NCBI GenBank assembly: GCA_046735635.1
Contig: JBKPTT010000149.1
Span: 1-58,845, forward strand
Reading direction: 5' to 3'
From: Acidobacteriota bacterium
Lineage (GTDB): Bacteria > Acidobacteriota > Vicinamibacteria > Vicinamibacterales > 2-12-FULL-66-21
Length of the DNA: 58,845 nt
The notes under the pieces were generated by a model. The model worked only from the letters and a program-made list of their open reading frames with translations, was not told where the DNA came from and did no database searches. Shown piece by piece: positions 11,062 to 54,841 of this stretch (within the stretch, counting starts at the first letter, position 1; each line of letters begins with the position of its first letter). The position numbers and the translations under genes are program-made.

Positions 11062-11153
11062 GCTCCCCAGCAAAGCAAGCGGATTGCCACGGCATCCGGA
11101 GCAGCACCGCATTGACGTCGGCCGAAGTTATGATCGTCGGATGAGCAGAGCTC

Positions 11154-12203: not shown

Positions 12204-12204
12204 C

Positions 12205-12228
12205 CGCGGTGCCGTTCGGAGCACCGCG
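12205..12228. terminator. hairpin between convergent thiO and the RND gene
   Basis: CGCGGTGC (12205-12212) pairs with GCACCGCG (12221-12228) around an 8-nt loop. No clear U-tract. Confidence 0.4.
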
Positions 12229-12260
12229 ACCGTGGTCGGAGGCCGTTCGTGCCGCGCCGG

Positions 12261-36305: not shown

Positions 36306-36953
36306 GTGCCCAAGCGCAGGGATCAAAACTGTACGCTCTTCTCTGCCGCAGCGTTGACTTCCATAGAGGCCACGTCGTCGGAGGGAGACGTCATGGAACA
36401 CACTCACGGGGTCAGGCTGGACGTGTTGTTGCGGCGCGGTCCGCTCGAGTGCACGGAGGTGGCGCGGCTTGGCGCCGAGCTCGCCCGTGGACTCGCGGCC
36501 GCGCACGCGGCGGGGGTCGTCCATGGTGATATCACACCTGCCAAGTTGAAGATCACGTCCGACGGCGAATTGAAAATCCTGGATTTCCCTGCCCGTGCCA
36601 ATACAGGAGAGGACGCCGGCGACGCCCGTACGGCGGACATCTTTGCCGCCGGTGCGGTGCTGTACCAGATGGCGTGCGGCCGGGCGCCGTTCAGCGCCTC
36701 GAATCCGGAAGCCGCGGTCAGGGCAATCCTGAACGGGAAGGTGCCGCTTCCGTCGCAGGTCCACCGCGGCGTTCACCGTGCGTTGGAGCGGATTATCATC
36801 CGCGCGCTCGAGCCGATTCCTGCGCGCCGTTACGCCTCCGCGAACGATCTCGCGCGGGCGCTCGAGGCCTTGGAGATGACGCGAGGTTGCCGGGAATCCG
36901 CGCACGCTGAGCCATCCCATAACCTCGCGATTCCTGATTCGTCGATTCGCTGA
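36306..36953 (+). pseudogene. N-terminally truncated Ser/Thr kinase-like ORF (C-lobe only; pseudokinase or gene remnant)
   Basis: Retains the hinge and C-lobe (VMEHTHGVRLDVLL, AHAAGVVHGDITPAKL, ILDFP in place of DFG, ADIFAAGAVLYQM, RRYASANDLARALE). Lacks the Gly-loop, VAIK lysine and APE loop. Likely ATG is 36393. Confidence 0.55.
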
Positions 36954-37032: not shown

Positions 37033-38158
37033 AGTGAAGCCTCTCGATCATCCGATCGAACGCGTAGAGCAGATCCTCACGGTTCGAGTACGGTCCCGGT
37101 GTGTACGCCCGCGATGAAATGCCGGCCTGCGAGAGCTCGCAGACATGCCAGTCCTGCCGGTTCGTCATGTCCCAGAACTCGATGGCGTCGGACGCGTCGA
37201 ATGCCGGCGACGCCATCGCGCCGGGATGAAAATGCCATTCGCAGACGTTGATGGTGCGGTCCGGCGCAAGCGGCCACAGCGTGTGCACCATCATGTAGTC
37301 GGGGTGAAGGCTGAGGAGCATGTTCGGAAAGATCGCGTAGTAGTACACGCGGCGGACGTCGTGCGCCGACAGGCCGGGCAGGAAGGCGCGCGGACACTTC
37401 CCATCTCTCGACAGCGTCTCGACCCCGGGCCTCAAATCCATACGCCCACCCATGTACGTCGCGCGCAACGGCTCGTTCTCGCCGCTCAAGTAATGAGACA
37501 ACTTGTTGAGCGCGGGATGCAGGTTCGGGCAGTGCAGACACTCGTTGTAGTTCTGGATCACGAGCTTCCAGTTGGCGCGCACGTCATAGGTAATCCGGTG
37601 CCCGAGCCGCAGCTCTTGCATCCGCCACGGTTGAAACTTTTCGGGCAGATCCGCGAGCTGCTCCGAGAGCGGCTTCCCGTCGCGCGCGAGCGTGATGAAG
37701 ATGTGTCCGTCCCACGTGTCCGCACCGACTCGGTGAAGAGGGTAGTCCTCCTTGCGGAAGTGCGGCACGTCGTCCATGTGAGGCGCGCCGATCAGCTTCC
37801 CGTCCAGGTCATAAGTCCAGGCGTGATACGGGCACTGAATGCTGCCGCCGAACGCGCCCTGGTTCTCCGCGCAAAGACGCGTGCCGCGATGCCGGCAGAC
37901 GTTATGGAACGCCCGCACGGCGCCGGACGCGGTACGCGTGACGATGAGGCTTTCCCCCGAGATCTCGCGGATGAAGAACTGGCCGGGCCGCTCGATCTGC
38001 TGCTCGCGTCCCGCGCAGATCCACATGCCGCAGAACAGAGCGTCCATCTCGCGCTCGAAGTACGCACGGCTCGTGTAATACTCCGCAGGCAGCGTGAAGG
38101 CCTGCGGCGGCATCACCTCGCGCGGCTTGACGACGACATCAGATGGATACGGCTTCAT
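37019..38158 (-). CDS. Rieske [2Fe-2S] aromatic-ring-hydroxylating oxygenase alpha subunit
   Basis: 379 aa. Rieske motif CRHRGTRLC...CPYHAWTY and mononuclear-iron region NYNECLHCPNLHP. Confidence 0.85.
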   Translation of the reverse strand: MKPYPSDVVVKPREVMPPQAFTLPAEYYTSRAYFEREMDALFCGMWICAGREQQIERPGQFFIREISGESLIVTRTASGAVRAFHNVCRHRGTRLCAENQGAFGGSIQCPYHAWTYDLDGKLIGAPHMDDVPHFRKEDYPLHRVGADTWDGHIFITLARDGKPLSEQLADLPEKFQPWRMQELRLGHRITYDVRANWKLVIQNYNECLHCPNLHPALNKLSHYLSGENEPLRATYMGGRMDLRPGVETLSRDGKCPRAFLPGLSAHDVRRVYYYAIFPNMLLSLHPDYMMVHTLWPLAPDRTINVCEWHFHPGAMASPAFDASDAIEFWDMTNRQDWHVCELSQAGISSRAYTPGPYSNREDLLYAFDRMIERLHSGNP

Positions 38159-39465
38159 CGGTGGCCACGCCCACTATAGGCCTGAAACGGGACCTCGGGA
38201 AATGGGACCTGACGGCGATTGGCGTGAACCAGGTGATCGGCGGTGCGGTGTTCGCCGCCCCGGCCGCGCTCGTGGCGAACGCCGGCGGCTGGAGCCCGTG
38301 GATGATCGTGGCGGTCGGTGTGGCCTCGATGCTGATCGCGCTGTCGTTCGCAGAGGTCGCCAGCCGGTTCGACGCCACCGGCGGTCCGTATCTGTACGCG
38401 CGCGCCGCGTTCGGACAGTTTCTGTCGTTCGAAGTCGGCTGGATGATGTGGGTGACCCGCGTGGCGAGCTGGGCGGCGGTGATCAACGTGCTCGTCTCGT
38501 CGCTCGGGTTCTACTGGCCGTCCATCACCCGCGGTGCGACACGCGCATTTCTCATCACCGCGATCATCGCATCGCTCGCCGCGATCAATATCCGTGGCAT
38601 TCGCCAGAGCAGCTTCGTCGTGAACCTGCTGACGCTCGGAAAGCTGGTGCCGCTCGCGGTGTTCATCGTCGCGGGCATCTTCTGGATCGACTGGGCCCGC
38701 CTGCGTCCGGGCGCGCCGCTGTCGTTTGCACAGCTCTCCTCCACCGGGCTCGTGCTCATTTACGTGTTCGGGGGGTACGAAGTTGTCCCGGTACCGGCGG
38801 GAGAAACGCGAAATCCGCGCCGTGATGTCCCTTTTGCTCTGATAACGACGATTGCGATCGTGACGCTGGTGACGCTGCTCCTGCAGGTGGTCGCGATGGG
38901 CACGTTGCCTGGATTGTCCGAATCGAAGACGCCGCTCGCCGACGCGGCCGCGGTCTGCCTCGGCGCGTCGGGCGCCGCGATGGTGACCCTTGCCGCCGTG
39001 CTCTCGACGTCCGGCAACAATATGGGGCAGGCGCTGTCCGGCTCTCGGAATCTGTTTGCGCTCGCGGAACAGGGAGACGTTCCGCGCTTGTTCGGACGAA
39101 TTCATCCGCGCTTCCGCACGCCCGTAAACGCGATCATTGCGACGGCGGCGGTCTCTCTGGCGCTCGCGTTATCGGGAACGTTTCAGTCGATGGCCCAGGC
39201 AAGCGCGATCAGCCGGCTGCTCGTCTATCTGGCGACTTGTGCGTCCATGCTGCGACTTCGCGGGAGCTCGTTCAGGACAGTGGTGAAGCCCGCCGAATTT
39301 CATGTGCCGTTTGGGCCGGCGATTCCCGTCGCTGCGATCCTCATCGCATTGACGATCCTTGCCGGTGCGACGCCGGTGCAGCTCCGAAACGGGCTGATGG
39401 CGCTCGCGGCAGGAGCGGTCCTTTACGGCATCGCGGCGGCCGCGCGCAGGCGTCGGCCGGCCTAA
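38143..39465 (+). CDS. APC-family amino acid permease
   Basis: 440 aa, about 12 TM. LKRDLGKWDLTAIGVNQVIGGAVF signature. Start could be GTG 38161, which would avoid the divergent overlap with the Rieske gene. Confidence 0.82.
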   Translation: MDTASSVATPTIGLKRDLGKWDLTAIGVNQVIGGAVFAAPAALVANAGGWSPWMIVAVGVASMLIALSFAEVASRFDATGGPYLYARAAFGQFLSFEVGWMMWVTRVASWAAVINVLVSSLGFYWPSITRGATRAFLITAIIASLAAINIRGIRQSSFVVNLLTLGKLVPLAVFIVAGIFWIDWARLRPGAPLSFAQLSSTGLVLIYVFGGYEVVPVPAGETRNPRRDVPFALITTIAIVTLVTLLLQVVAMGTLPGLSESKTPLADAAAVCLGASGAAMVTLAAVLSTSGNNMGQALSGSRNLFALAEQGDVPRLFGRIHPRFRTPVNAIIATAAVSLALALSGTFQSMAQASAISRLLVYLATCASMLRLRGSSFRTVVKPAEFHVPFGPAIPVAAILIALTILAGATPVQLRNGLMALAAGAVLYGIAAAARRRRPA

Positions 39466-42061: not shown

Positions 42062-42318
42062 ATGCTGATTTGAGATTGCTGATTGCTGATTTATTGATGA
42101 TTTACGATTGCAGAATCCCGAGGTGTTATTGTCCGGACGTTGCAAGCCACGACGCGAGATTGAGATTGCTGATTGCTGATTGCTGATTGCTGATTGCTGA
42201 TTGCTGATTGCTGATTGATTGATGATTTACGCTTGCGGATCGACACTAAGTCGGAGAATCAGCAAACAGAATCGCCCGGTGTTCGCCATTGCCCGGACGG
42301 TGCAAGCGACGACGCGAG
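42062..42318. repeat. tandem segmental duplication (about 96-bp copy A + about 161-bp copy B), each carrying a GATTGCT microsatellite
   Basis: Both copies share ...TGAGATTGCTGATTGCT..TTGATGATTTACG.TTGC.GA...CCGG.GTT...CCGGACG.TGCAAGC.ACGACGCGAG. Lies in the 430-bp divergent intergenic region. Confidence 0.8.
42164..42226. repeat. heptanucleotide tandem repeat (GATTGCT)x7 followed by two degenerate units
   Basis: Perfect units from 42164 to 42212, then GATTGAT TGATGAT. Copy A has only two units (42075-42088). Confidence 0.95.
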
Positions 42319-42379
42319 CAAGCGGAGCGCAGCGAGCCACGCGACCGGAGCGAGCCGGCGCAGCGGGGAGCGAGGGCGC

Positions 42380-42412
42380 GTGTAGGGGAGTCCGAGGGGC
42401 TCAGCCCCTCGG
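42380..42412 (+). repeat. REP-like GTAG hairpin, type B (GTGTAGGGGAGT-CCGAGGGGC-TCA-GCCCCTCGG)
   Basis: Perfect 9-bp stem 42392-42400 / 42404-42412. Ends 7 nt before the panE ATG. Flanking AGCGAGCCACG..CGGAGCGA block is shared with the 27500-27680 copy. Confidence 0.8.
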
Positions 42413-42419
42413 TTAAGAA

Positions 42420-43373
42420 ATGAAAGTTGCGATTCTCGGTTCTGGAGCCGTCGGGGGGTATTACGGGGCGAAGCTTGCGCGGGCGGGACACGACGTGACG
42501 TTCATCGCGCGCGGCGCACACCTGCAGGCGATTCGCGAACGGGGGCTGCACGTCAAGAGCCCGGCCGTCGGGAGTTTCACCGTTCATGCGCCAGCCGAGG
42601 ACGACACGAGCCGCGTCGGTCCGGTGGATGTCGTCATCGTTTCCGTGAAGACCTACGACAACCCGACCGCGTTGCCGATGATCGCGCCGATGATGGGGTC
42701 CGATACCGCGGTTCTTACGGTCCAGAACGGTGTGGACAGTGCCGTAGAGGCAGCTGCGATCGTCGGTGAGCAGGCGGTGATCGGCGGCACGACCTACATC
42801 GCGACGGCGCTCACTGCGCCCGGCATGATCGAGCAGACGGGCACGCACCGGCGCGTTGTATTCGGCGAAGTCTTCGGCGACCTTCCCCGGCTGACCGCGC
42901 GAGTACGTGCGATCCACGACGCGCTCGCAAGCGCCGACATTCAGTCGGAAGCGGTCGACGACGGACGTGTGCCGATTTGGGAGAAGTTCATCTTCCTCGT
43001 TGCGCTTGCCGGATTCACTGGAGCGTCGCGGCTGTCGATCGGCCCTCTCTGGACCGACGCGGTCATCCGCGGGCAGTTTCTCGAGGGCTGCCGCGAGGTG
43101 GAACGCCTCGCAAGAGCCGAAGGTGTCGCGATTGCACCAGATGTCGTCGAGCGCATCGACGCGTACGTTCGCGGGATTCCGGGCACGATGCGATCATCGC
43201 TGCTCATCGACCTATCGCAGAACAAACGGATCGAAGTCGAAGCGCTGCACGGAGCGGTCGTCAGACGCGCCGAACGCGCAGGTCTACCCGCTCCGATTAT
43301 GGCGACGCTGTATGCGGTGCTCAAGCCCTACGCAGACGGCACGCCAAATCCGCCCGTTGTAACGCAGGCGTGA
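42420..43373 (+). CDS. panE: 2-dehydropantoate 2-reductase (ketopantoate reductase)
   Basis: 317 aa. MKVAILGSGAVGGYYGAKLARAGHDVTFIARG Rossmann fold, ApbA C-terminal domain with SSLLIDL...KRIEVEALHG. Confidence 0.85.
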   Translation: MKVAILGSGAVGGYYGAKLARAGHDVTFIARGAHLQAIRERGLHVKSPAVGSFTVHAPAEDDTSRVGPVDVVIVSVKTYDNPTALPMIAPMMGSDTAVLTVQNGVDSAVEAAAIVGEQAVIGGTTYIATALTAPGMIEQTGTHRRVVFGEVFGDLPRLTARVRAIHDALASADIQSEAVDDGRVPIWEKFIFLVALAGFTGASRLSIGPLWTDAVIRGQFLEGCREVERLARAEGVAIAPDVVERIDAYVRGIPGTMRSSLLIDLSQNKRIEVEALHGAVVRRAERAGLPAPIMATLYAVLKPYADGTPNPPVVTQA

Positions 43374-43390: not shown

Positions 43391-44764
43391 TCAGGCGCGG
43401 TTCACGAGTGCCGCGCGGTACGCGGCCATCCCGCCGCGCACGTTGGCAACCGCGGGAAACCCTTCGCGTGCGAGGAGACTGGCAGCCAGCGACGATCGGT
43501 AACCGCCCTCACAGATAGTTACCAGCAGCACGTCGCGCGGAAGCTCGTGAGCGCGCGCAGGAATGTCCCCGACTGGCAGATGGATCGAGCCTTCGATGTG
43601 GCCGAGCCGCCATTCGTGAGGTGTTCGGACGTCGACGATTCTGAGTCGTTCTCCCGTGGCGACACGTTTCTGAAGGTCCTCCAGGGACATCTCGGGAGTG
43701 CTCTTCGCGGGCAGTCCGGCCGCGATCCAACCGTCGAATCCGCCCTCGACGAGTCCCACGACGTCATCGAGCCCGACGCGCAGCAGCTGCCTCGCGACTT
43801 CTGCAGCCTCATGATCGTTCCCGCCCATCAACAGAATCGGCGCGTTTGCTTCGAGGATCCAGGCGGCCCAGTAGCCGATCGACGGTCCCATGGCGATATT
43901 GAGCGCTCCGGGCGGATGCGCGGTACTGAAAGCCCGGTCGGACCGCAGGTCGATCATGGCCGCGCCCTCGCGCAGTGCGCGGTACGCAGCATCGGCCGGA
44001 ATCGACGCGAGTGGAGGCACCGCCTCTCCGAGATGCAGAAGCGGGGGACCCTGCTGATTCATCCGCTTCATGCGCCTGAAGTACGGAGGCGTTTCGGGCA
44101 GGTCGCCGAGAACCGCCTCGACGAACTCCTCACGCGTCCGGTCCTTCAGCATCGGGTTCGATATCCGCTCGCGTCCGATTGTCGAACGAGGATCTGCGGC
44201 AATTCCGGTCCCGCACAGCGAGCCAGCTCCGTGCCCCGGATGGATTTCCACCGCGTCGTCGAGCGCGAGCAGCACGTTGAACAGCGAATCGAACAAGTGC
44301 TCCGCAAGCGCGTGCGTCACTGAGTCTCCGAGGAGATCCGGGCGTCCGACCGCGGCCACGAACAACGTGTCGCCGGTGAAGACGCGGTCCGGTTCGCCAG
44401 GGGCGCGCGTGACGATCGAGATGTGCTCGGGCGTATGTCCAGGGGTATGGAGGAACTGCAGCGACAGGTCCCCGAACTGCATGGCGTCTTGGTGCTGGAC
44501 CGCGTGGGCCGGGTAGGCGAGCGACGATCCCGGGCCGGCAACGACGCGCACGCCAAGCGCCGCCAACTCACGCGCGCCGGATACGAAATCAGCGTGAATG
44601 TGCGTCTCGATCGCTGCGGCGATCTGCAGCTGTTGCTGCCGAGCGGCCGCGACGTACACGTCGATATCGCGCCGCGGATCGATGATAACGGCCTGTCGCG
44701 TGCGCGCGCACGCGAGGAGATACGACGCCTGCGCCAGCCCCGCATCGAAATACCGCTGGAACAT
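43391..44764 (-). CDS. MBL-fold hydrolase (persulfide-dioxygenase-like) fused to two rhodanese domains
   Basis: 457 aa. ETHIHADFVSG metal motif, HTPGHTPEH, then rhodanese modules with the active-site loop CEGGYRS. Confidence 0.8.
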   Translation of the reverse strand: MFQRYFDAGLAQASYLLACARTRQAVIIDPRRDIDVYVAAARQQQLQIAAAIETHIHADFVSGARELAALGVRVVAGPGSSLAYPAHAVQHQDAMQFGDLSLQFLHTPGHTPEHISIVTRAPGEPDRVFTGDTLFVAAVGRPDLLGDSVTHALAEHLFDSLFNVLLALDDAVEIHPGHGAGSLCGTGIAADPRSTIGRERISNPMLKDRTREEFVEAVLGDLPETPPYFRRMKRMNQQGPPLLHLGEAVPPLASIPADAAYRALREGAAMIDLRSDRAFSTAHPPGALNIAMGPSIGYWAAWILEANAPILLMGGNDHEAAEVARQLLRVGLDDVVGLVEGGFDGWIAAGLPAKSTPEMSLEDLQKRVATGERLRIVDVRTPHEWRLGHIEGSIHLPVGDIPARAHELPRDVLLVTICEGGYRSSLAASLLAREGFPAVANVRGGMAAYRAALVNRA

Positions 44765-44834
44765 CAGATAAGATTCCTGTTGGAGTGCTCTCGGATCATA
44801 GCACCGTCACCGCGGATGGACGGCTGTCGCTCAC

Positions 44835-45662
44835 GTGACGATTACGTCCGCGATGATCGGGATCGTGATGGCGTGCGGAGCCGCGGCTGGCGCTCTCGGC
44901 GCGCTCCTCGGCATCGGCGGCGGCGTATTCCTCGTTCCCTTCCTCAACGCCTGGTTCGGCATCGAATTCAAGACGGCGGCGGCAATCAGCCTCGTCACGG
45001 TGATCGCGACGTCGAGCGCGGTCTCGGCAGGCACGACCGGCCGAAATCTGATCAATCTCCGTCTCGGGATGCTCCTCGAGGTCGCGTCCGCCGCCGGCGG
45101 AGTCGCCGCGGGCCTGACGATCGCGTACATCTCGGACATTGCCCTGGAGCGCGGGTTCGCCGTCGCGACGGCGCTCATCGCGCTGCTGATGCTGACTCGC
45201 CTCGAACGCCGCAACGTGATCCTCGATCCCGGGGCGGACCCTGGCGCGCTCGGCGGACGGTTTCACGATGAGGAGAGCGGCGGAGAAGTCGTCTACCGCG
45301 TTCGCCGCCTCCCCGCCGCGCTCGGGATTTCTTTCCTCGCAGGGAATGTCTCCGCTGCTTTCGGCATCGGCGGCGGAATTCTGAAGGTGCCCGTGCTCAC
45401 CGCGTGGTGTGGCGTGCCGATGCGCGCGGCGGCCGCAACGAGCTCCTTGATGATCGGCGTCACTGCCGTTGCATCGGTTCCGATTCAGTATGCGCATGGG
45501 TACGTGAAGCCCCCGCTCGCAGCGGCCGCAGTGCTGGGCGTGCTTCTCGGATCGCGGGCCGGTCTATGGTTCGGCGGACGCGCGCGCGCGAAGTCGCTCA
45601 AGGGACTGATGGCGGCAGTTCTGCTGCTCGTGAGCCTGATTTACTTCCGGAGAAGCCTGTGA
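44835..45662 (+). CDS. TauE/SafE (TSUP) family sulfite/anion exporter
   Basis: 275 aa, 7-8 TM. GALLGIGGGVFLVPFL and repeated AAFGIGGGILKVPVL motifs. Confidence 0.85.
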   Translation: MTITSAMIGIVMACGAAAGALGALLGIGGGVFLVPFLNAWFGIEFKTAAAISLVTVIATSSAVSAGTTGRNLINLRLGMLLEVASAAGGVAAGLTIAYISDIALERGFAVATALIALLMLTRLERRNVILDPGADPGALGGRFHDEESGGEVVYRVRRLPAALGISFLAGNVSAAFGIGGGILKVPVLTAWCGVPMRAAAATSSLMIGVTAVASVPIQYAHGYVKPPLAAAAVLGVLLGSRAGLWFGGRARAKSLKGLMAAVLLLVSLIYFRRSL

Positions 45663-45973
45663 CGACCGATCAGCTCGCGCCGCTCGAACACAAGCTTGGT
45701 CGCTTGCTCGTGGCCGGGGTATTCGCGAGCGCGGCGTTTTTGGTCGCTGGGCTGTTGCTCTGGCTACGCGATTCCACCGGATCGGCAGCGGCATGGTTGC
45801 TCAACGCGGGGCTCGTGACGCTCATGGCGACGCCCATTCTGCGCGTCGTCGTCTCGGTCACGGAATATGTGAGGCTTCGTCAGTGGTTTTTCGTGGCCGT
45901 CACGATCGTCGTCCTGGCGGAATTGACGGTCACGGTCTGGGCCGCGCTCTACAGGATTTCGCGCTCACCGTAA
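45659..45973 (+). CDS. DUF1634 membrane protein
   Basis: GTG 45659 overlaps the TauE TGA (GTGA). VTTDQLAPLEHKLGRLLVAGVFASAAFLVAGLLLW... with 3 TM. Usual partner of TauE. Confidence 0.7.
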   Translation: MTTDQLAPLEHKLGRLLVAGVFASAAFLVAGLLLWLRDSTGSAAAWLLNAGLVTLMATPILRVVVSVTEYVRLRQWFFVAVTIVVLAELTVTVWAALYRISRSP

Positions 45974-46998
45974 GCTTCGGGACTGGACGGAATCGCTCCC
46001 TCCTTCATCTCGGCGGTGACTTCTTTGAGCCGCTCGTCGGTCACCGCACGCATTTTCTGGAGCAGATCGGCGATCCGCTGGGCCTGAAAAACGACGGTGG
46101 CGAGGTCGCGGTGCAGGTTTGGATCCGGATAGCCGTGCTCAATGAGATCGCAGTGTCCCACGATCGTCTGAAGCGCGCCGTTGATCTCGGAGGCGATCGA
46201 TAAAGTCACCTCGGTCATCGTCTCCATCGAACGGTGTTTGCCCACCGCAATCTGCAGCTGCTGTGCGACGTACGCAATCGCAAAAATCTCGGCGATTGGC
46301 GTCAGCGCGTCGATGTGCTGCTGCTGAAACGCGTGCTTTCGCCGTGAAGCGACGTTCAACGTACCGACAACGCGTCCCTTCGCGACGAGTGGGAGGAGCA
46401 AGGCAGACAACAATCCGGAACTGTGCAGCACGTTGACGTCGAGCAGGTCAGGGGCACTCTCGCCGGTGTCGGCCAGGTTCAGCGGCTCGCGAGAGCGCAC
46501 GACGATGCCGAGAGCGGTGCGTTCTGTTTTGAAAACGACGTCGGGCCGGGGACGTGTGCGGCGCTCCTCCTCATCGGCCCGTGCCGTGTAGGTCTGAAAC
46601 TCCCGGCCATTGTCCGAGAGCAGTGCGAGCCCAACGCGGTCGCAAGGCACAACTCGGACGATGCGCTGCGCCAGTGCCTGGAACGCAAGCGGCACGTCGA
46701 CCGAGCGCGTGATGATTTCGAGAATGGCGTTCCACGTCTCGAGCTGCTCCACCTGGCTGACAGCCTCCGACCGGATGTGCTCCTCGCGGGAAAGCGTGCG
46801 CGCGAGTCCGCCAATCCGACGCGTGGAAACGACCGCAAGGATAATCGTCACGGCCCATGCCGCCACGACCTGCACGAGCACCAGTGGCCGGCGCGGCATT
46901 CCCCCCGCCATGGTCCAGGCGACAGCCTCGACGACGGCGAAGAGGGCGACGAGACCCCAGATGCCCAGAACTGCCGCGCGCGGGTGCCGCAACTTCAT
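45949..46998 (-). CDS. membrane-anchored GAF-domain protein with a degenerate HisKA/DHp-like helix and no ATPase domain
   Basis: 349 aa. 2 TM (AAVLGIWGLVALFAVVEAV; LVLVQVVAAWAVTIILAVV), a GAF-like core, then LSIASEINGALQTIVGHCDL where HisKA has (A/S)HE(I/L)xxPL: Ser replaces the phospho-His. The ORF ends without a HATPase_c domain. Its ATG overlaps the methylase TGA (ATGA at 46995-46998). Confidence 0.7.
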   Translation of the reverse strand: MKLRHPRAAVLGIWGLVALFAVVEAVAWTMAGGMPRRPLVLVQVVAAWAVTIILAVVSTRRIGGLARTLSREEHIRSEAVSQVEQLETWNAILEIITRSVDVPLAFQALAQRIVRVVPCDRVGLALLSDNGREFQTYTARADEEERRTRPRPDVVFKTERTALGIVVRSREPLNLADTGESAPDLLDVNVLHSSGLLSALLLPLVAKGRVVGTLNVASRRKHAFQQQHIDALTPIAEIFAIAYVAQQLQIAVGKHRSMETMTEVTLSIASEINGALQTIVGHCDLIEHGYPDPNLHRDLATVVFQAQRIADLLQKMRAVTDERLKEVTAEMKEGAIPSSPEAYGEREIL

Positions 46999-49900
46999 CG
47001 CAGAAGGCCAGTATATGGCGGATGAGACCCTTGAATTCCGACGAGCGCATCGAGCGCGTGGTCGCGTTCCGCTGCTGGTACGAGCGGAAATGAATCGAGG
47101 ATGTGGCGGAACTCGTCGGTCGAGCAGCCGTAGAGCCAGGCGACGAGTGCCTGTAGACGTGCTTCATCGTCGTCGTTGCGCGTTTCTGAGAGCGCGCGGC
47201 TCAGCTCTACGATCGCGGCATACGGCTGCGAGTCGCGCGGCGGGCGTGGAACCGGCAGCCGCTGGATGATCGCGACCGTCACGTGAGTGTTCACGCGCAG
47301 CCGAACCAGGTAGTTGGCGACGAAACTGTTGAACACGCCGCACAGAAAGTACTGGACGTCCAGATCGACTGGAGATTTGAGGCAGAACACGGTGTGTGTC
47401 GACACCGTGCCCGCCGGAAGAATTGCGGCAATGAGCGTGAGGCGATTGGACGCCGACGCCACATCGCGATACGCGAGCCGCGGCCGTTTGAACCTCATTC
47501 CTAACAGCCGTTCCGCCGTGGCCCGGCGGATTGAGTGAGTGCTTGCCGCCAGATCCACGGCAAAGGGCGAGATCTGCTTGCCTTCAACTACTGGGCACGT
47601 GTTTGCGCGTCGGGAACCAGCAACGAAGTGGCGGCGATCGTCGGTGGCGTTGAGCTCGCGACCGAATGTGACGTTCCACCCCCGCTCGCTCGTCACGGCA
47701 GACACCGACTCGACGATCCGCGAGAGGATTGCGAGATCTGTCCGCGTCCGCAGCTCCGGGATCGCATTCTGATCGCCCGAGAACTCGCGTAAGAGGCCGC
47801 GCGGAATTGGAACGACCCCGGCGTCGTCGCCATCCGGCAGTCGTTCCAGTTCCACCGGGGTGCGAATGCCGGCCCGCGCCGGAACCGCCCTGGTGCTCAT
47901 CCCGCGGGTGGCCGTGAGCAGCACGAATTTCAGTCCTCGATGGACCGGAAACAGACCATCGTGGTTCGCGACCGTCACGAACGTGTCGATTCCCGTCGAG
48001 TCGAGAAACGCACCGCGCAGCAGAGCGCATCCATGATCGATCGCGAAGCCTGACGGCAGAATCAGGCCGACGCGGCCGCCAATCTTCAGAAGCGCGAGGG
48101 CGCGCTCGGCGAACAACTGAAACAGGTTGGCGTGGCCGCGGCCCTGAAACCGGTACACGCCTGATTCACGGGCAAATGCCGTCAACCTTCCGGCATCGCT
48201 CGATTCGCCGCGATCGCCGCGCAGCATCTCCCATGGGGGATTGCCCAGGACCGCGTCGAAGCCGGGCGAGCCAAGTGAACGCCCATCGGGGTCAAAGAAG
48301 ACCTCGGGAAATTCCAGCGGCCAATGAAAGAAACGTTCGCGGTGGGACACGCTTGCGCATTCATCGAGAAACGACTTCGCGGTCCCGGCGGGAAGGCGCG
48401 GCCCGGCTCGCCCCAGCACGCCATCGAGGAGCGCGCCAAACATACCTGACGTCAGAGGACGACCGTCGCGGAACCACTCCGCACACCACAGGTCTGAGAT
48501 GGTTTTCCACGCCGCGAGTCGAGGCTCGGCGTGAAGCGTCCGTAACAGATCTTCTTTCGCGCGGACCTGCGCGACAGTGTCGCCCGGATCCATTGCCAAC
48601 GACACACGCCCGGCGACGACCGATTGCATGATCCGATCGAGCATCTCGACATCGAATAACGGCAAAGTGGCTTGCGGCCGGCGGCCGCGCATCGGAGGCT
48701 GCCGAGCGATGTCGGTCGGCGAAGCTCCGGCGATGCTGTTGCCGGCGAGCAGGTGGTGATCGAGAAAGGTGAGCGGGCGATCCGCGGCAAGAGTCGCAAG
48801 CCATAGCGACAGGCGCCCGAGCTGCACGGCCATGGGGTTGACATCCACACCATACAGGCACCGCTGCGCGATGAGGCGCCTGAAGCCCGCGCGATCCGAC
48901 TCGAGCACGTCAAAGCTCGAAATGGCGTCCTCGCGAAGCAGCGCTGCTTCATACGCAGAAGCCAGATACCGGCACGCCGCGACCAGGAAGGCACCGCTGC
49001 CCATGGCAGGGTCGACAATCCGAAGCGACAGGATTTCGGTCGGCGTCGCGCGAGCAACGAGGGGAGCGAGCGTCCTCCGAACGAGGAAATCGGTGAGCGT
49101 CCGGGGCGTGTAGAACGTTCCGGTCGCCTTCCGGCGTCCGGAGCGGACGAGCGTCAGCGTCCCGCGGTCTCCCTCAACAGCCGCAGGAGCGTAGTCGAGG
49201 ATGCGTTCGTACACTCCGCCGAGTTGTTCCACGCCGAGGTCCGCGTACGCAATGGGGAGCCGTCCGTGTGCACTGGTTCGCGTGGTCAGCGCGAGCATCG
49301 CCTCCCTGACCGCTGCGTCATCGAGCCGCACCGATTCTGCGAGCGGCGCGCCCAGCGGCGAAAACAACCGCCCATTGAACGCAGGAACGCGAAGCGTACC
49401 CGCGTGGCAGCCGTCGTGTGCGAGGCGCGCGATGGCCTGAAGCGCCTCCCACAGCCCCAGTGGCCGTCCCGATCGTGTCAGTGGTTCGCGAAGCGACTCG
49501 ATCGTGTAGCTCTCGCGAAACACCGGGTGCCAGGTCGGCACCAGTCCGCGTGCTTCGGCGAAGAGAAGGAACAGCATGCGGTAGATGACGACCAGCGACT
49601 CTTCCAGCAGCACGGCGGGCCGCGTCGTTCGGGGCCGCCCTAGCCGAGCGGTCGCGAATGCCGAGAGTAGAGCCTGTAGTGCCTCGAGCACTCCGTCCTG
49701 GAGGCACGCGCGCACCTCGGCTCTGAAGCGTTCCGATGCGAGCACGGCACGATCCAGCGCGGGGACCGGTGTCGCTGAGAGACGCTCCGACGCGAGCAGC
49801 CCCCGCAGCGCCGCTCCGGTCGAGGGCTCTCGACGAGCGATGTCCAAATCGAACTGAACGTATCGCCGCGAATACGTGCGAAGCGCATCGACGACGCGCA

Positions 49901-50276
49901 GCAGCGGCCCTGTGATGCAGAAGCACCACCGAATGCCACAGGCAATCCCAAGCCGCACGCTGTCATTCCAGACGGCCGCGGGGTCCCATCCCCAGGGCGT
50001 GACGACCAGAACACCACACGTGTGGCCGTCCGCCACCAATTGCGCGTGGATGGCACCGACATCTTCTCCCAATGGGATTACCGTATGCCCCAGGCTCTCC
50101 AGGAGTGGAACGGCCAGCCGATCGAATACAGCGCGCGCGCTGCTCGCGGGCCCAAGCTCCGACTCCAATCTCGACCGCCATCCAGCGGCTCCTCGCGAAA
50201 GCGTGCCGCGATCGCTGAGGAATTCCGCGGCGACGACGTCATGCGACAACAGCGATCCCGTGAGGCCCGGGATCAC
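46995..50276 (-). CDS. PglX/MmeI-like gamma-class N6-adenine DNA methyltransferase with C-terminal TRD-like region (about 1093 aa)
   Basis: FAEARGLVP...AFNGRLF helical region, GTFYTPR, motif I DPAMGSGAF (48993-49013), FHWPLEFPEVF, motif IV NPPW (48231-48242), TaqI-C-like tail. Start set at GTG 50276, which overlaps the helicase TGA. Confidence 0.85.
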   Translation of the reverse strand: MIPGLTGSLLSHDVVAAEFLSDRGTLSRGAAGWRSRLESELGPASSARAVFDRLAVPLLESLGHTVIPLGEDVGAIHAQLVADGHTCGVLVVTPWGWDPAAVWNDSVRLGIACGIRWCFCITGPLLRVVDALRTYSRRYVQFDLDIARREPSTGAALRGLLASERLSATPVPALDRAVLASERFRAEVRACLQDGVLEALQALLSAFATARLGRPRTTRPAVLLEESLVVIYRMLFLLFAEARGLVPTWHPVFRESYTIESLREPLTRSGRPLGLWEALQAIARLAHDGCHAGTLRVPAFNGRLFSPLGAPLAESVRLDDAAVREAMLALTTRTSAHGRLPIAYADLGVEQLGGVYERILDYAPAAVEGDRGTLTLVRSGRRKATGTFYTPRTLTDFLVRRTLAPLVARATPTEILSLRIVDPAMGSGAFLVAACRYLASAYEAALLREDAISSFDVLESDRAGFRRLIAQRCLYGVDVNPMAVQLGRLSLWLATLAADRPLTFLDHHLLAGNSIAGASPTDIARQPPMRGRRPQATLPLFDVEMLDRIMQSVVAGRVSLAMDPGDTVAQVRAKEDLLRTLHAEPRLAAWKTISDLWCAEWFRDGRPLTSGMFGALLDGVLGRAGPRLPAGTAKSFLDECASVSHRERFFHWPLEFPEVFFDPDGRSLGSPGFDAVLGNPPWEMLRGDRGESSDAGRLTAFARESGVYRFQGRGHANLFQLFAERALALLKIGGRVGLILPSGFAIDHGCALLRGAFLDSTGIDTFVTVANHDGLFPVHRGLKFVLLTATRGMSTRAVPARAGIRTPVELERLPDGDDAGVVPIPRGLLREFSGDQNAIPELRTRTDLAILSRIVESVSAVTSERGWNVTFGRELNATDDRRHFVAGSRRANTCPVVEGKQISPFAVDLAASTHSIRRATAERLLGMRFKRPRLAYRDVASASNRLTLIAAILPAGTVSTHTVFCLKSPVDLDVQYFLCGVFNSFVANYLVRLRVNTHVTVAIIQRLPVPRPPRDSQPYAAIVELSRALSETRNDDDEARLQALVAWLYGCSTDEFRHILDSFPLVPAAERDHALDALVGIQGSHPPYTGLLR

Positions 50277-52744
50277 TCGGTGTTCTCCGCGTGCGCGACG
50301 AGAACCGCGCACAAACGAGCGGACGGTTGCAAGTGAGCCGACGACGAGAGCCTCTTGAGGTAGTTGTTCGCGTCGTTGAGCAGCAACGTCGCGACGCGCT
50401 TGCGCGCCGACAAGGTCCGGACCGTCCGCTGATCGAAAAGCCCGGGCTGCACGAGCTGTCGGGCGGCAGAGGGCAGCGCACGAAGGATCGCCTGTTCGCG
50501 TCCGGCGAGCCGTTCCGCTGCCTGCCGGTACCGCATGGCAATCTCGGAGAGCTGTGCGCCGCAATGCTGCAACAGCACTCCGCGAATGTGCTCGTCTATG
50601 GCAGTTGGAAGGGTGCTGAGTAATCTGACGGGATGCTGCGCCTGCCCACCGTGGGCCTCTGCATCGATCGCGCAGCGTGCCACCGCAATCTCGCGATGCG
50701 GGCGATTGCCGTCCGGCGTCTCGAGCGAGATCTCGTACACGGCGAATACGCCAGGATCGACGTGTCGTGACCTTTCAATAAACGTCACGACGACAGAGGT
50801 GGGGCTCCTGGAGATCGCGTGCCGGCGCAGCTCCATCAGGCGCTCCGCCTCGCGCGCCGCTTCTTCACGGAGGCCGGGCGGCGGGTCGGAGAAGCCCGCA
50901 GCCACCGTTTCTGGTGCCATCGCGCGGACCGGCTGTCGGTCAAGCACCGCTGCCGCGACCTGGGACTCGGTGACCGCATCCACCAGAAAGGCGTTGTCTC
51001 CGAGCAACGACTGGGAACGCGTCATGCGCTCGACCAGTGGCGCGAGCACGAGCCGTTCAGCCGTGTCGCGAGCGACTAGTAACAACTCGTGGACGCGAGT
51101 AGCCTGTCCGATTCGATCCACCCGGCCGGCACGTTGCTCCAACCGTGCCGGGCTCCACGGCAACTCGAAATGGATCACTATGCGGCATCGCTCGTGCAGA
51201 TTGAGGCCTTCGGCGGCGGCATCGGTCGCGAGCAGGAGCGAGGAGCGGGTGTTGAACGCTTCTTGCGCGCATGCCCGCTCTCGGAGGTCCATCCCTCCGT
51301 GAAGGACCAGCAGGTTCGGCTGTACCGCGGACAACTCGCGGCGGAGCCGCTCCAACGTGTCCCGGTATTCGGTGAAGACGATTGCCGGCTCGCGCAGCCG
51401 CCCAAGCAGCCGTCGTAAGAACCGCGTCTTCGATTCGCAAAGCCGCGCGCGCCGCGCCGCCCGCAAGATCTTGCCGAGCACTCTGCGCTCCTCGCGCGGG
51501 TTGGCAAGCCCGGGTGTTCGGAGAACCGACCCGGGTTCGGCGTCCGCGAGCGCGTCTTCGTCTTCGAGCGGAAGCGAGGGTTGAAATTGAAAGGCTTCGC
51601 CGCTGTCGGCGCGGCCCGCGAGCAGCTCGAGGCGCCGCAGGATCGACGATGCCAAAGAGCCAGCACTCGACAGCGCACGTTTTCTGAGAACTACGGCTAC
51701 CAGCCTCACGTGCTGGTCACTCCTCGCGTGTGCTTCGCGGCACAAGCGTGCCGTGTAATCTTCGAGCCGGCGGTGCATGCAGCGTTCGGCCGGCGTCAGC
51801 CTGACAGCGGCAACACGCCTTCGCCGTGTCAGGTGCGGCATCACCTCGGACCGGCGACGCCGGAACATGACGATCTGCGGCGCGTCGGAGTCGGTCGCGC
51901 CCAACCTGCACATCGCGTTGAACTGTTCGGCGTCGCCGGCGTGCGGGGTGGCGGTCAACAGGATGACTCGGCGAGCGCGCGATGCGACTGCGTGAACCGC
52001 GGCACGCCGTGCGGTTCCGAGCGCCGCCTGGTGCGCTTCGTCCACGACGACCGCATCCCAGGTGACCTCTTCCAGCGGCCGGAGAACCTCTGGGCGTTTG
52101 ATCAAATCGCACGACGCAACATAAATGCCGGGGAGCGCCCACGGATTCACGTCAATCGGGAGCTCCGACGCTGCGCGCGCCAGCCAACGTGAGCCGGCGT
52201 CGATCGACGGGAGACGAAAATGAGTGGCGAGCTGCCGGACCCACTGATCGCGAAGACCTGCCGGCACGATGACGAGGGCACGAATCTCGGAATGCTCCGA
52301 CGCGAGCTCGTTCAGGAGCAGGCTGGCCTGTATCGTCTTCCCGAGCCCTACGCCGTCGGCGATCATCACGCGCGTCACACCGTCGCGGCGCATCAGCAGC
52401 GCCGGCTCGAGCTGGTACGGCAGGATCGTCACGCGGCTGTCCCCGGCCGCAGTGAATCCGCCGGCCGGGGTCAACGCTGCAGCGAAGCCGCGGATTACTC
52501 GAATCCATGTGCCGGGAGGGACCACTCGAAACTCGCCACCGCGCGGCAAGGGTTTCGGCCGATCAAACGGCAGCAGGATGGTGCGGCACCCGCGGTTTCG
52601 TACGCTTTCCGGGCGCAGCCGCAGCGATTCACAATCGATGTAGCTGCAGCGTTCGACGAGGCTCCAGACGTGGCCGCGTACGAGCACGCGGCTGCCAGCA
52701 TGCCAGATGCGAGGTGTGTGCCCCATGCCTGGACGGCATGGCAA
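50273..52744 (-). CDS. SNF2/RapA-like SF2 ATPase (helicase-like translocase)
   Basis: 823 aa. ADGVGLGKT (52334-52360), DEAH (52031-52042), LLTATPH, helicase-C block LLATDAAAEGLNLH...ELPWSPARLEQRAGRVDRIGQ, and a C-terminal region of about 220 aa without a recognisable motif. Confidence 0.85.
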   Translation of the reverse strand: MPCRPGMGHTPRIWHAGSRVLVRGHVWSLVERCSYIDCESLRLRPESVRNRGCRTILLPFDRPKPLPRGGEFRVVPPGTWIRVIRGFAAALTPAGGFTAAGDSRVTILPYQLEPALLMRRDGVTRVMIADGVGLGKTIQASLLLNELASEHSEIRALVIVPAGLRDQWVRQLATHFRLPSIDAGSRWLARAASELPIDVNPWALPGIYVASCDLIKRPEVLRPLEEVTWDAVVVDEAHQAALGTARRAAVHAVASRARRVILLTATPHAGDAEQFNAMCRLGATDSDAPQIVMFRRRRSEVMPHLTRRRRVAAVRLTPAERCMHRRLEDYTARLCREAHARSDQHVRLVAVVLRKRALSSAGSLASSILRRLELLAGRADSGEAFQFQPSLPLEDEDALADAEPGSVLRTPGLANPREERRVLGKILRAARRARLCESKTRFLRRLLGRLREPAIVFTEYRDTLERLRRELSAVQPNLLVLHGGMDLRERACAQEAFNTRSSLLLATDAAAEGLNLHERCRIVIHFELPWSPARLEQRAGRVDRIGQATRVHELLLVARDTAERLVLAPLVERMTRSQSLLGDNAFLVDAVTESQVAAAVLDRQPVRAMAPETVAAGFSDPPPGLREEAAREAERLMELRRHAISRSPTSVVVTFIERSRHVDPGVFAVYEISLETPDGNRPHREIAVARCAIDAEAHGGQAQHPVRLLSTLPTAIDEHIRGVLLQHCGAQLSEIAMRYRQAAERLAGREQAILRALPSAARQLVQPGLFDQRTVRTLSARKRVATLLLNDANNYLKRLSSSAHLQPSARLCAVLVAHAENTE

Positions 52745-52882
52745 CGCGGGTGCCGTGTTGCGTCCGTGCGAGCGTACGGTGGCTGAAGTCGTGCGTGCAG
52801 AACGAACTGCGGACGGACGAGCGCTTCGGTCGTGTTCCCGTCGATAACCTGCGCGGCGGGCTTCCTTTCAGAATCTGCGCGT

Positions 52883-54841
52883 TCAGGCCCCCGACTGTTG
52901 ATCGTTTCTTGCGTCCTCGAGCGCCCGCTTCGAGAGAATCACTGGATGGGACATGCGGCTGCGCCCCGGCTGCCGCGGTGCCGGCACGCGCACCCGTCGA
53001 ATACGGCAGCCGCGCGCGTACGCGACGCCGGCGACATTGGCCGGGATTGATAGACCGGCTATCAGATCGCGAAACTCGTCGCCCTTTGACGCTGCCGCGG
53101 AGTGGCGCTTGCCGGAATCGGGCCGCGCCCATGCGCTCACGGGCATCAGTTTCAGGAGCGGACTGTCGGTTCCTTCTTCAACCCGGAAGTCCGAGAACGG
53201 ATCGTGATCGAGGTCAATCTCGATTTCGAGCTCCGCCGCCTGACGCGCGCGCTCCTCCGCCTCGCGACGAAGGCGTTCCTGTTCCGCGGCTGCTTCCGCC
53301 GCGACGCGTTCGGCTTCTTCCCTCGCCTTTCGCTTGGCCTCTTCCTTCGCCTTGCGGTCGGCTTCCTCTTTGGCGCGCCGTTCCTCTTCTTCCTTGGCGC
53401 GGCGTGCGGCTTCTTCGTTCGCCCGTCGTTCGGCTTCTTCTTTGGCGCGCCGTTCGGCTTCTTCGTTCGCCCTGCGTGCGGCTTCTTCCTTTGCCCGTCG
53501 CGCAGCTTCCTCTTTCGCCCGGCGCTCCGCTTCTTCCTTGGCGCGGCGTGCGGCTTCTTCCTTCGCCCGTCGTTCGGCTTCTTCTTTGGCCCGGCGTGCG
53601 GCTTCTTCCTTTGCCCGGCGCTCGGCTTCTTCCATTGCCCGTCGCGCAGCTTCCTCTTTCGCCCGTCGCTCCGCTTCTTCCTTCGCGCGGCGTGCCGCTT
53701 CTTCCTTGGCGCGACGCTCGGCCTCTTCCTTTGCCCGTCGCTCGGCCTCTTCTTTTGCCCGACGTGCGGCCTCTTCTTTGGCTCGGCGGTCGGCTTCTTC
53801 GTTCGCCCGTCGCTCCGCTTCTTCCTTCGCGCGGTGTGCCGCTTCTTCCTTGGCGCGGCGCTCGGCTTCTTCCTTTGCCCGTCGCTCAGCCTCCTGCTTC
53901 GCCCGCCGTTCCGCTTCTTCCTTGGCCTGGCGCTCCGCCTCGTGCTTCGCCTGGCGCTTTGCCTCGTCTTGCGCCCGACGCTCCGCCTCCACCGTTTCGC
54001 GTTCGAGTCGCTCGGCTTCTTCTTTGGCGCGCCGCTCTTCTTCCCTCGCTCGGCGTTCGGTATCTTGTCTGGCCCGTCGCTCCGCGTCTTCTCTGGCGTC
54101 CCGCTCCGTGTCTTCTCTCGCCCGCCGCTCCTCTTCCAGGCGCCTTGTTTCCTCTTCTTCGGCTACCACCGCGAGCGGCGCATTCGTGACGAGCGGTTTG
54201 CGCGGCGCCGTCTCCTTCTTCTTCTGGCCAGCCGGGTCCGACCGCCGCCACTCGAACGGGGACGCCCAGGAGGATCCGCTGTCCACCGCGGGCTCCTCCG
54301 CCGTCGCGTCGGCCGCGTGCGCTGCCGAATGCGTATCCCGTGCTACAGGCTCATGCGGCGCGGCATCGTCGCGCCGCGACCGCTCGATGACCGGTGGCGG
54401 CGCCAGCGCGACATGCGCCTTCATCTCCGCCGCGCGCGCGATGAACGTGCTGACTTCGTCCGCGAACGCTGTGGGATCGCACCCCGGTATTGCGTCCGCG
54501 CTCTTCTTGCGCCGGAGCTTCCCGAACAGTCCGCCGCCCTCCTGCCCACCGTCGCCGTCGTGCGAAGACGACGCCAGCTGCGGAATCGTGTGCGTCTGGA
54601 CGTGCTCGGCGCCGGACAAGTCGCGCAGGTGCGCGATGAGCTCCTGCTCGTCGCGCGGCGAGAGCAGCGCGGTCAGCAGAATGACGTCGGGAATGCGCGA
54701 CGAGGTGGCGGCGATGGCAGCGTCGCGTGAATCAACGACCATCAGCTCGGCGTGCACTCGATCCCGGATGACGCGCTTGAGCACCGATGCTTGCCGGTGA
54801 TCGGGCTCGAGCGCCAGAACGAACGGGGCGTGACTATGCAA
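52883..54841 (-). CDS. pseudo-receiver (CheY-like, acceptor Asp replaced) protein with an ER/K single-alpha-helix-type repeat region of about 310 aa
   Basis: 652 aa. N-terminus FVLALEPDHRQASVLKRVI...IPDVILLTALLSPRDEQELIAHLRD has the CheY fold pattern with Thr at the D57 position. aa 228-540 are (KEEAxRRA)n. Unique C-terminal domain of about 110 aa. Confidence 0.75.
   Translation of the reverse strand: MHSHAPFVLALEPDHRQASVLKRVIRDRVHAELMVVDSRDAAIAATSSRIPDVILLTALLSPRDEQELIAHLRDLSGAEHVQTHTIPQLASSSHDGDGGQEGGGLFGKLRRKKSADAIPGCDPTAFADEVSTFIARAAEMKAHVALAPPPVIERSRRDDAAPHEPVARDTHSAAHAADATAEEPAVDSGSSWASPFEWRRSDPAGQKKKETAPRKPLVTNAPLAVVAEEEETRRLEEERRAREDTERDAREDAERRARQDTERRAREEERRAKEEAERLERETVEAERRAQDEAKRQAKHEAERQAKEEAERRAKQEAERRAKEEAERRAKEEAAHRAKEEAERRANEEADRRAKEEAARRAKEEAERRAKEEAERRAKEEAARRAKEEAERRAKEEAARRAMEEAERRAKEEAARRAKEEAERRAKEEAARRAKEEAERRAKEEAARRAKEEAARRANEEAERRAKEEAERRANEEAARRAKEEEERRAKEEADRKAKEEAKRKAREEAERVAAEAAAEQERLRREAEERARQAAELEIEIDLDHDPFSDFRVEEGTDSPLLKLMPVSAWARPDSGKRHSAAASKGDEFRDLIAGLSIPANVAGVAYARGCRIRRVRVPAPRQPGRSRMSHPVILSKRALEDARNDQQSGA
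53222..54160 (-). repeat. coding tandem repeat, 24-bp period (AAG GAA GAA GCS GMR CGC CGC GCS), within the ER/K protein gene
   Basis: Dozens of near-identical 8-codon units are visible in the DNA. They generate long shadow ORFs in other frames on both strands. Confidence 0.85.

Follow-up and report, generated by a model that had tools for sequence, protein, structure and literature searches.

The gene described here lies at 45949..46998 on the minus strand of a window of 58,845 nucleotides (positions 1 to 58,845 of contig JBKPTT010000149.1, from an Acidobacteriota bacterium of the order Vicinamibacterales). Its product, P0001, is a membrane protein with a GAF domain, and the gene follows those of an SNF2-family helicase and a DNA methyltransferase (MTase). 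A first-pass annotation had read this GAF gene as a sensor hard-wired to the SNF2-MTase pair. The gene and its upstream neighbors are as follows.

45949..46998, minus strand: gene of P0001, a 349-residue protein with two transmembrane (TM) helices, a GAF domain and a degenerate dimerization and histidine phosphotransfer (DHp) hairpin (open reading frame (ORF) and translation; homologues; 21/151 genomes of the order)
46995..46998, minus strand: ATGA stop/start overlap from the MTase to the GAF gene (sequence; bridged by a contig from an independent run)
46995..50276, minus strand: 1093-residue N6-adenine MTase (Eco57I/N6_Mtase; DrmMI/type IIG-like, below curated cut-offs; Pfam, PADLOC, NCBIfam)
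50273..52744, minus strand: SNF2-family helicase (DrmD-like, below cut-off), GTGA-coupled to the MTase (Pfam, PADLOC, NCBIfam, junction)

The minus strand across the MTase/GAF junction reads ...ctgcgATGAagttg..., where the ATG of the GAF gene (46998-46996) overlaps the MTase TGA (46997-46995). The SNF2 TGA (50275-50273) in turn overlaps the MTase GTG (50276-50274), and the MTase alignments of relatives begin at residue 1-2 of the GTG-start reading. Near the ATG of P0001 the sole other start codon in frame is a TTG, two codons further along. The N-terminus, M-x-x-R..., showed M1 and R4 invariant in 15/15 close homologues. A contig of run X5, a soil metagenome from another study, spans 46821-47268 with 6 differing letters; because this independent contig bridges the MTase/GAF junction, an assembly artefact can be ruled out there. 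The one metatranscriptome contig, X20, corresponds to 47358-47600 with 7 differences, inside the MTase gene and short of the GAF junction, and so has no bearing on co-transcription. The uninterrupted, overlap-coupled string of SNF2, MTase and GAF genes claimed in the first-pass annotation, with the GAF start placed in the ATGA, therefore agrees with the junction sequences, the start-codon evidence and the X5 contig.

The SNF2, MTase and GAF genes showed GC contents of 0.63–0.66 and third-position GC contents of 0.73–0.77, in line with the window (0.652). A simple scan of 45300-53300 for sigma-70-like promoters found none, and a terminator scan gave nothing usable. To judge from the junctions, the GAF gene is probably co-transcribed with the SNF2-MTase pair in the window. 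The ATGA overlap alone is unremarkable, since bacterial operons show this 4-base form more often than any other gene overlap.

P0001 was divided into the following segments.

46909..46983, minus strand: TM helix 1, residues ~6-30 (hydropathy windows from residues 5-16; AlphaFold2 (AF2) helix 6-30)
46825..46890, minus strand: TM helix 2, residues ~37-58 (hydropathy windows from residues 36-44; AF2 helix from 37)
46705..46824, minus strand: helix linking TM helix 2 to the GAF domain, residues 59-98 (AF2 continuous helix 37-98, pLDDT only about 61-68)
46273..46686, minus strand: GAF domain, residues 105-242 (Pfam, PDB profile match, Foldseek, invariant columns)
46003..46251, minus strand: DHp-like helical hairpin, residues ~250-332 (AF2; HisKA profile at family level)
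46189..46191, minus strand: Ser270 codon, at the position of the phospho-acceptor His (aligned opposite the H-box His of P0202 and P0267)
45976..45993, minus strand: C-terminal tail motif IPSSPE, residues 336-341 (S339 invariant and P340 near-invariant in 28 sequences; low pLDDT)

The AF2 model was built from a 28-sequence alignment and showed a mean pLDDT of 75.9 and a pTM of 0.56. The model and the hydropathy profile (19-residue windows of at least 1.6) agreed on two N-terminal TM helices. The loop between them has only eight residues (AGGMPRRP), so P0001 should have no extracytoplasmic sensor domain. Behind the linker helix, an α/β domain occupied residues ~102-225. Pfam PF01590 (GAF) matched residues 105-242 with 54.9 bits against a cut-off of 22.4, and 28/28 family members matched it too. 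A profile search of the PDB matched GAF domains (2zmf, E 8e-9), and the top Foldseek matches of the model in the PDB were the GAF domains of PDE6, Lcd1, and PtsP (E about 1e-8, TM-score on the target 0.73–0.78). The pLDDT was 77–93 over most of the domain and 58 across the conserved basic loop 141-150. This loop is invariant in the family as E145-R146-R147-x-R149-P150-R151, and C119 is near-invariant.

The GAF domain is followed in the model by a hairpin of one helix at 226-289, a GYPDP turn and a second helix at 293-332 (pLDDT 79–87), after which comes the low-confidence tail. HisKA (PF00512) scored 10.8 bits on P0001 (E 0.54), below its cut-off of 26.9. At family level, the HisKA profile reached E<=1 in 28/28 members, with a best E of 2.1e-7, and many close P0001 homologues carry a precomputed PF00512 label. 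In BLASTP alignments, 'IASEINGALQTIVGHCDL' of P0001 paired with 'MAHDLNNVLAAILGQTEL' and 'VAHDFNNMLTAILGYTHL' of P0202 and P0267, and S270 stood opposite the His. These two are long GAF proteins of 1617 and 1296 residues with a His-bearing H-box, obtained from the search of representatives. Over an alignment spanning 39–84% identity, the column of the His position held S, A, T, N, or V and showed His in 0/28 members. The E/D at +1 was kept, and the +4 column was G or S in 28/28; passages of PMC12963549 give E/DxxT/N as the phosphatase motif of HisKA kinases. Other columns of the hairpin were invariant or near-invariant, namely N273, Q277, G281, and C283 in helix 1 (C283 invariant) and Q305, R308, L312, M316, and R317 in helix 2.

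HATPase_c gave no Pfam match in P0001 even at E<=1. The chain stops 17 residues past the second hairpin helix, so there is no room for an ATPase domain. These results bear out the earlier description of a TM-GAF sensor-type protein whose H-box carries Ser for His and which ends without HATPase_c. The further conclusion that this protein cannot signal by phosphotransfer is supported by family-wide sequence evidence, as the His, the T/N phosphatase residue and the ATPase are all gone. The Pfam scans showed no DNA-binding domain in P0001. A PDB profile search matched only GAF domains and no DHp, which says nothing on the hairpin, and GAF matches also dominated Foldseek on the whole model. When the C-terminal 105 residues were searched against the window's own genome, only the query itself came back, so this search gave no kinase with a similar hairpin as a candidate for a heterodimer. 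A scan of 31 further ORFs of the window revealed neither a kinase gene nor one for a response regulator.

Compared with canonical GAF-HisKA-HATPase_c kinases, as represented by the long, His-bearing GAF proteins P0202 and P0267, P0001 showed the same order of a GAF domain and then a DHp helix, and its H-box aligned residue for residue. It differs from the canonical kinases in lacking the His, the T/N at +4 and the ATP-binding domain, and the identity was 23–28%, mostly in the GAF part. P0001 therefore does not qualify as a functional sensor histidine kinase: the His, the catalytic and ATP-binding (CA) domain and the phosphatase motif are all missing. Two described proteins come close to it in kind. 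Passages of PMC12963549 present PsmA of Streptomyces venezuelae as a histidine pseudokinase without catalytic His or E/DxxT/N motif that works through protein contacts. DivL of Caulobacter is likewise presented in the discussion of PMC12963549 (see also PMC4211667) as derived from a histidine kinase, lacking the catalytic His and acting by protein contacts. The likeness is one of description, and both proteins keep degenerate CA domains and PAS domains, whereas the P0001 family has no CA domain, carries a GAF domain and is anchored in the membrane. By this analogy, the GAF family is a phospho-inert relic of a histidine kinase, like PsmA and DivL but without any CA domain.

Stand-alone GAF proteins of the NreA type modulate a partner kinase in a respiratory or redox regulon, and NreA has neither TM helices nor a DHp hairpin. 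With P0001 it would share the output of a GAF domain by protein contact, a likeness of idea only.

P0001 is not an isolated case. At E<=1e-3, a word-indexed search yielded 1358 proteins, of which the best 120 were all 339–363 residues long, with 66–98% identity and 97–100% coverage. An exhaustive search of 1.84 billion representatives gave 65 proteins at E<=1e-30. Fragments aside, relatives aligning over both the GAF domain and the hairpin had 287–363 residues, and every full-length relative fell within 327–363. Among the matches listed, proteins of more than 400 residues showed at most 31% identity and were multi-GAF giants matching the GAF part. Judged by these relatives, P0001 is a member of a discrete family of ~340–360 residues and not a truncated kinase. 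The alternative kept in view by the earlier annotation, that homologues would carry an intact His and an ATPase domain, is ruled out by the same short length of the relatives and by the 0/28 count for His. Clusters of short GAF and GAF+HisKA proteins from other phyla are on record in the ESM Atlas and serve as leads only. A literature search at listing level found no paper on the GAF family or on psr genes of Vicinamibacterales.

The distribution of the GAF gene was compared with that of the MTase in 151 genomes, an even sample of the order Vicinamibacterales. The GAF gene was present in 21/151, with 11/11 genomes in family f1, 4/4 in f17, 5/12 in f6, and 0 in sixteen other families; its spread is 3/19 sampled families. 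Outside the order, it was found in 0/230 sampled genomes of the phylum. The MTase was present in 122/151 genomes at E<=1e-30, or 115 without seven f11 genomes whose matches are partial and maybe paralogues. At E<=1e-100, the phylum sample showed the MTase in 15/21 genomes of the order and in 0/230 others. The MTase thus occurred without a GAF match in 101 sampled genomes of the order (122 versus 21).

The SNF2 and MTase genes were adjacent in 20/20 GAF-less loci from ten families. Downstream of the MTase, 9/20 of these loci had a convergent DUF1634-TauE pair directly, the same genes that flank the GAF gene of the window. Other GAF-less slots held psr-like genes alone (co-oriented in f5, inverted in f4), an XDH-type molybdenum hydroxylase trio (f7), or aminopeptidase P, LigB, ferritin-like, M20 peptidase, and major facilitator superfamily genes. 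On this comparison, the stretch 3' of the MTase is a slot of variable content, whereas the region around it is syntenic. The GAF gene is not required by the MTase, because about a hundred MTase-bearing genomes and 20/20 of these loci do without it.

Where the GAF gene is present, the MTase was upstream of it and co-oriented in 18/20 GAF loci; the contigs of the remaining two end before that point. One short related locus, L001, was left out of the comparison. The MTase was directly upstream in 8/20 loci and in the window. In the other 12/20, two co-oriented genes stood between the MTase and the GAF gene. The first encodes a protein of 504–513 residues in which a 4Fe-4S dicluster domain is fused to a membrane domain of the NrfD type (PsrBC-like). 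The second, directly upstream of the GAF gene, encodes a molybdopterin oxidoreductase of ~880–920 residues, the catalytic subunit (PsrA-like). The best NCBIfam matches of the two proteins were TtrB/ArrB/DsrO/NrfC and PhsA/DmsA, all below cut-off. The N-termini of both, read by eye, showed no twin-arginine (Tat) or signal sequence. The molybdoenzyme should therefore face the cytoplasm, as should the GAF domain and the DHp hairpin.

The operon of this type in L027 lies at 10305-14761 on the minus strand and is Psr/Phs/Ttr-like; the same genes occur in 11 other GAF loci and in L077-L080. In two f17 loci, the PsrA-like gene was matched in two pieces (L032 10469-12625 and L035 6482-9221), which may reflect frameshifts, decay, or assembly errors. 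The f17 sister genome L036, of the same family, has lost its psr genes.

The distances between the genes also differed. The gaps from the PsrA stop to the GAF start were −4, −1, −4, +40, −1, +6, −4, and −4 bp in the eight measured loci, so that the GAF gene was stop/start-coupled to the catalytic-subunit gene in 6/8 junctions from three families. The gaps from the MTase to the GAF gene were −4 (window), +43, −4, +176, −11 (start unsure), +52, +95, +70, and +271 bp. Within the window's genus alone, they ran over −4, +43, +176, and +52 bp.

These data can be set against the proposal of a three-gene DNA-modification module, in which the GAF pseudo-kinase would serve as a dedicated sensor and regulate or tether the SNF2-MTase pair. 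The ATGA coupling, found in the window and again in L024, fits this proposal, as do the co-oriented downstream position of the GAF gene in 18/20 loci, kept after loss of the psr genes, and the lack of a sigma-70-like promoter in the simple scan. However, the MTase occurred in 101 sampled genomes without a GAF match, and GAF-less pairs in 20/20 loci had unrelated genes or nothing downstream. Molybdoenzyme genes intervene in 12/20 GAF loci, the gap from the MTase reaches 271 bp and varies within one genus, and P0001 gave no PADLOC match. A dedicated sensor of this kind is very unlikely. The hard-wiring proposed in the first-pass annotation is not supported by the comparison: going by these loci, the SNF2-MTase module does not include the GAF gene of the window. 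The expected co-conservation with the MTase stood in one direction, as the GAF gene is always downstream of the pair where the contig permits, and failed in the other, as the MTase does without the GAF gene. Overlap-coupling to a methyltransferase seen in one genome thus failed comparison with relatives. A later capture, in which the orphaned pseudo-kinase of psr-less lineages was taken into the SNF2-MTase operon and gates DNA methylation or remodelling on a cytoplasmic ligand, appears highly improbable. If true, it would be a sensor-controlled epigenetic module whose DISARM-like parts themselves belong to the core genes of the order.

The history of the slot was examined with a quick maximum-likelihood tree of 38 MTases. 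Loci with the GAF gene only and loci with psr and GAF genes were interleaved, well-supported branches forced at least 4 changes of state, and sister pairs of opposite state were found in f17 and f1. The psr genes were 62–79% identical between loci and always in the same place. Because they are similar and constant in position, repeated loss is simpler than repeated insertion. No PsrA orthologue was found in the psr-less genomes G000, G120, G142, G019, and G086, where only paralogues of 27–30% identity matched.

The GAF gene was intact and full-length in all nine psr-less loci, the window included. In the psr-less loci L023, L024, L025, and L030, the GAF protein showed 70, 65, 62, and 59% identity to the window, against 62, 54, 57, and 52% for the MTase and 50, 43, 47, and 45% for SNF2. 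Being better conserved than the MTase and SNF2 there, the GAF gene is under purifying selection, with a role of its own even where the molybdoenzyme is missing.

This conservation also bears on the possibility that the GAF protein does nothing but serve the Psr-like molybdoenzyme as an accessory or regulatory subunit, docked in the membrane beside the NrfD-like subunit, and that the copy in the window is a functionless relic. The stop/start coupling to the catalytic-subunit gene in 6/8 measured loci of three families would be expected of such a subunit, as would the predicted location of both proteins on the cytoplasmic side of the membrane. Against it, the GAF gene is intact in all nine psr-less loci and better conserved than its neighbors in the four that were compared, and loci of f4 and f5 have psr genes but no GAF gene. 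We consider this explanation quite unlikely. An attempt to predict a complex between the PsrBC-like subunit of L027 and the GAF protein of that locus had no outcome (score 0.00) and weighs neither way.

The reading that we prefer, with a probability of about 60%, is that P0001 is a phospho-inert GAF pseudo-kinase that belonged ancestrally to a molybdoenzyme operon in a sulfur-gene setting and came to abut the MTase after loss of the psr genes. Several points weigh against it. Coupling to the MTase by ATGA has come about two times, once in the window and once in L024, and the GAF gene keeps its place downstream of the SNF2-MTase pair after psr loss. The psr genes occur without the GAF gene (f4, f5) and the GAF gene without psr genes; because each occurs alone, neither depends on the other. 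The counts come from related genomes and cannot be treated as independent. Starts in the relatives were chosen by judgement among candidates, which makes the junction distances partly a matter of judgement. Finally, the MTase tree was a quick search with midpoint rooting, and the choice of loss over gain for the psr genes is an argument from parsimony.

The sulfur-gene side of the setting is formed by three genes beyond the 3' end of the GAF gene.

44835..45662, plus strand: TauE/SafE-family exporter, convergent with the GAF gene (Pfam PF01925, E 1.7e-39; syntenic in most loci of the order)
45404..45973, plus strand: DUF1634 ORF, true start probably near the TauE stop (Pfam PF07843, E 6.3e-11, residues 132-177)
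43391..44764, minus strand: fusion of a metallo-beta-lactamase (MBL) fold with rhodanese (Pfam Lactamase_B and Rhodanese)

The TauE-DUF1634 pair was the convergent neighbor of the GAF gene in 14/20 GAF loci, and the MBL-rhodanese gene was found in many loci. In the window, the 3' ends of the GAF gene (minus strand) and the DUF1634 ORF (plus strand) overlap convergently by 25 bp (45949-45973). With a Psr/Phs/Ttr-like enzyme upstream and TauE, DUF1634, and MBL-rhodanese downstream, the genomic setting of the GAF gene points to sulfur or respiratory redox metabolism.

The same neighbors suggest another possibility, in which the GAF protein senses reactive sulfur species and controls the MBL-rhodanese, TauE and DUF1634 genes as a set resembling sulfide detoxification, in the place of persulfide-sensing repressors. 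The convergent adjacency in 14/20 loci would suit such a sensor, as would the invariant Cys283 and near-invariant Cys119. For comparison, the bigR operon of Xylella and Agrobacterium is reported to turn H2S into sulfite by oxidation and includes the gene of Blh, a sulfur transferase/dioxygenase (PMC5823870). However, TauE-DUF1634 was in place in 13/20 GAF-less loci, so the GAF gene is not needed there, and P0001 has no DNA-binding domain. The NCBIfam Blh model matched the MBL-rhodanese protein with E 3.3e-10 and 39.4 bits, far below its cut-off of 625. Control of a sulfide-detoxification set by P0001 is therefore unlikely.

Under the preferred reading of a pseudo-kinase left behind by a molybdoenzyme operon, P0001 would work as a dimer held together through the DHp hairpin. 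The GAF domain would read a cytoplasmic ligand or redox signal, and the signal would be carried along the continuous helix into the DHp bundle. There it may shift the surface or register of the hairpin and so alter binding to another protein, with no phosphate moved. The candidate sensing sites are the Arg-rich loop, C119, and C283. The loop, which is invariant, points to an anionic ligand, and the conservation of both cysteines to redox or persulfide chemistry. Because the family is conserved beyond its neighbors despite lacking the His, the phosphatase residue and the ATPase, its DHp hairpin must presumably have an output independent of phosphate.

By the comparison of loci, the ancestral place of the gene is that of the third, stop/start-coupled member of an operon for a cytoplasm-facing, quinone-linked molybdoenzyme of the Psr/Phs/Ttr type. 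This operon takes up the variable slot between the SNF2-MTase pair, present across the order, and the conserved sulfur-type genes (TauE, DUF1634, and often MBL-rhodanese). In the window's lineage, both molybdoenzyme genes would then have been lost, so that the 3' end of the MTase gene came to be joined to the GAF gene through the ATGA. The family is a clear natural case of a histidine-kinase scaffold reduced to sensor and dimerization hairpin. Phospho-inert relics of two-component systems are little studied, and this family gives a testable link to a molybdoenzyme of soil Acidobacteriota that should face the cytoplasm.

The SNF2-MTase pair was also compared with known defence systems. Class 1 DISARM is the nearest, since DrmD and DrmMI are the best PADLOC/NCBIfam matches of the SNF2 and MTase proteins. 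The scores were far below the cut-offs, with 257 bits against 610 for the DrmD model on SNF2. No DISARM model was among the NCBIfam matches of the MTase, where the DrmMI matches came only from PADLOC. The BREX-1 PglX model gave 45.9 bits on the MTase against a cut-off of 500, too low to place it in BREX. PADLOC returned no match on the flanking ORFs or P0001. No DrmA/B/C-like gene was recognised beside the pair, and the only DUF1998/MZB (PF09369) match of the genome lies on contig C154. Membership of class 1 DISARM would call for DrmD and DrmMI above cut-off, with DrmA, DrmB (DUF1998), and DrmC close by, and the pair does not belong to it. The pair is syntenic and nearly universal in the order, unlike a patchy or mobile defence island. 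It was observed across the order as a vertically kept, defence-like pair without DrmA/B/C. Because it is vertically kept, order-specific and free of DrmA/B/C, its distribution suggests a housekeeping or epigenetic role.

Some further ORFs of the window deserve a remark. Three antisense shadow ORFs lie on the minus strand: 42246-42917 ('orf223') opposite an ApbA/PanE-like gene at 42420-43373 (plus), 44796-45497 ('orf233m') opposite TauE at 44835-45662 (plus), and 38155-39105 ('orf316m') opposite an amino-acid permease at 38143-39465 (plus). They are probably not genes and still give tblastn matches in relatives, which is a trap in a GC-rich genome. They served here as synteny markers and still mark the same DNA. 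A single ORF of 1587 residues at 12261-17024 (minus) combines a complete RND transporter of the AcrB type (residues 5-1019) with an outer-membrane-factor OEP domain (1362-1567), and is either an apparent fusion of pump and outer-membrane channel or the result of a missed stop. The 215-residue ORF at 36306-36953 (plus) matched only the middle of the protein kinase domain (profile positions 76-142), perhaps because it is a gene fragment or because its frame was called wrongly. At 29714-32257 (plus), by comparison, a complete Ser/Thr kinase is encoded together with TPR repeats.

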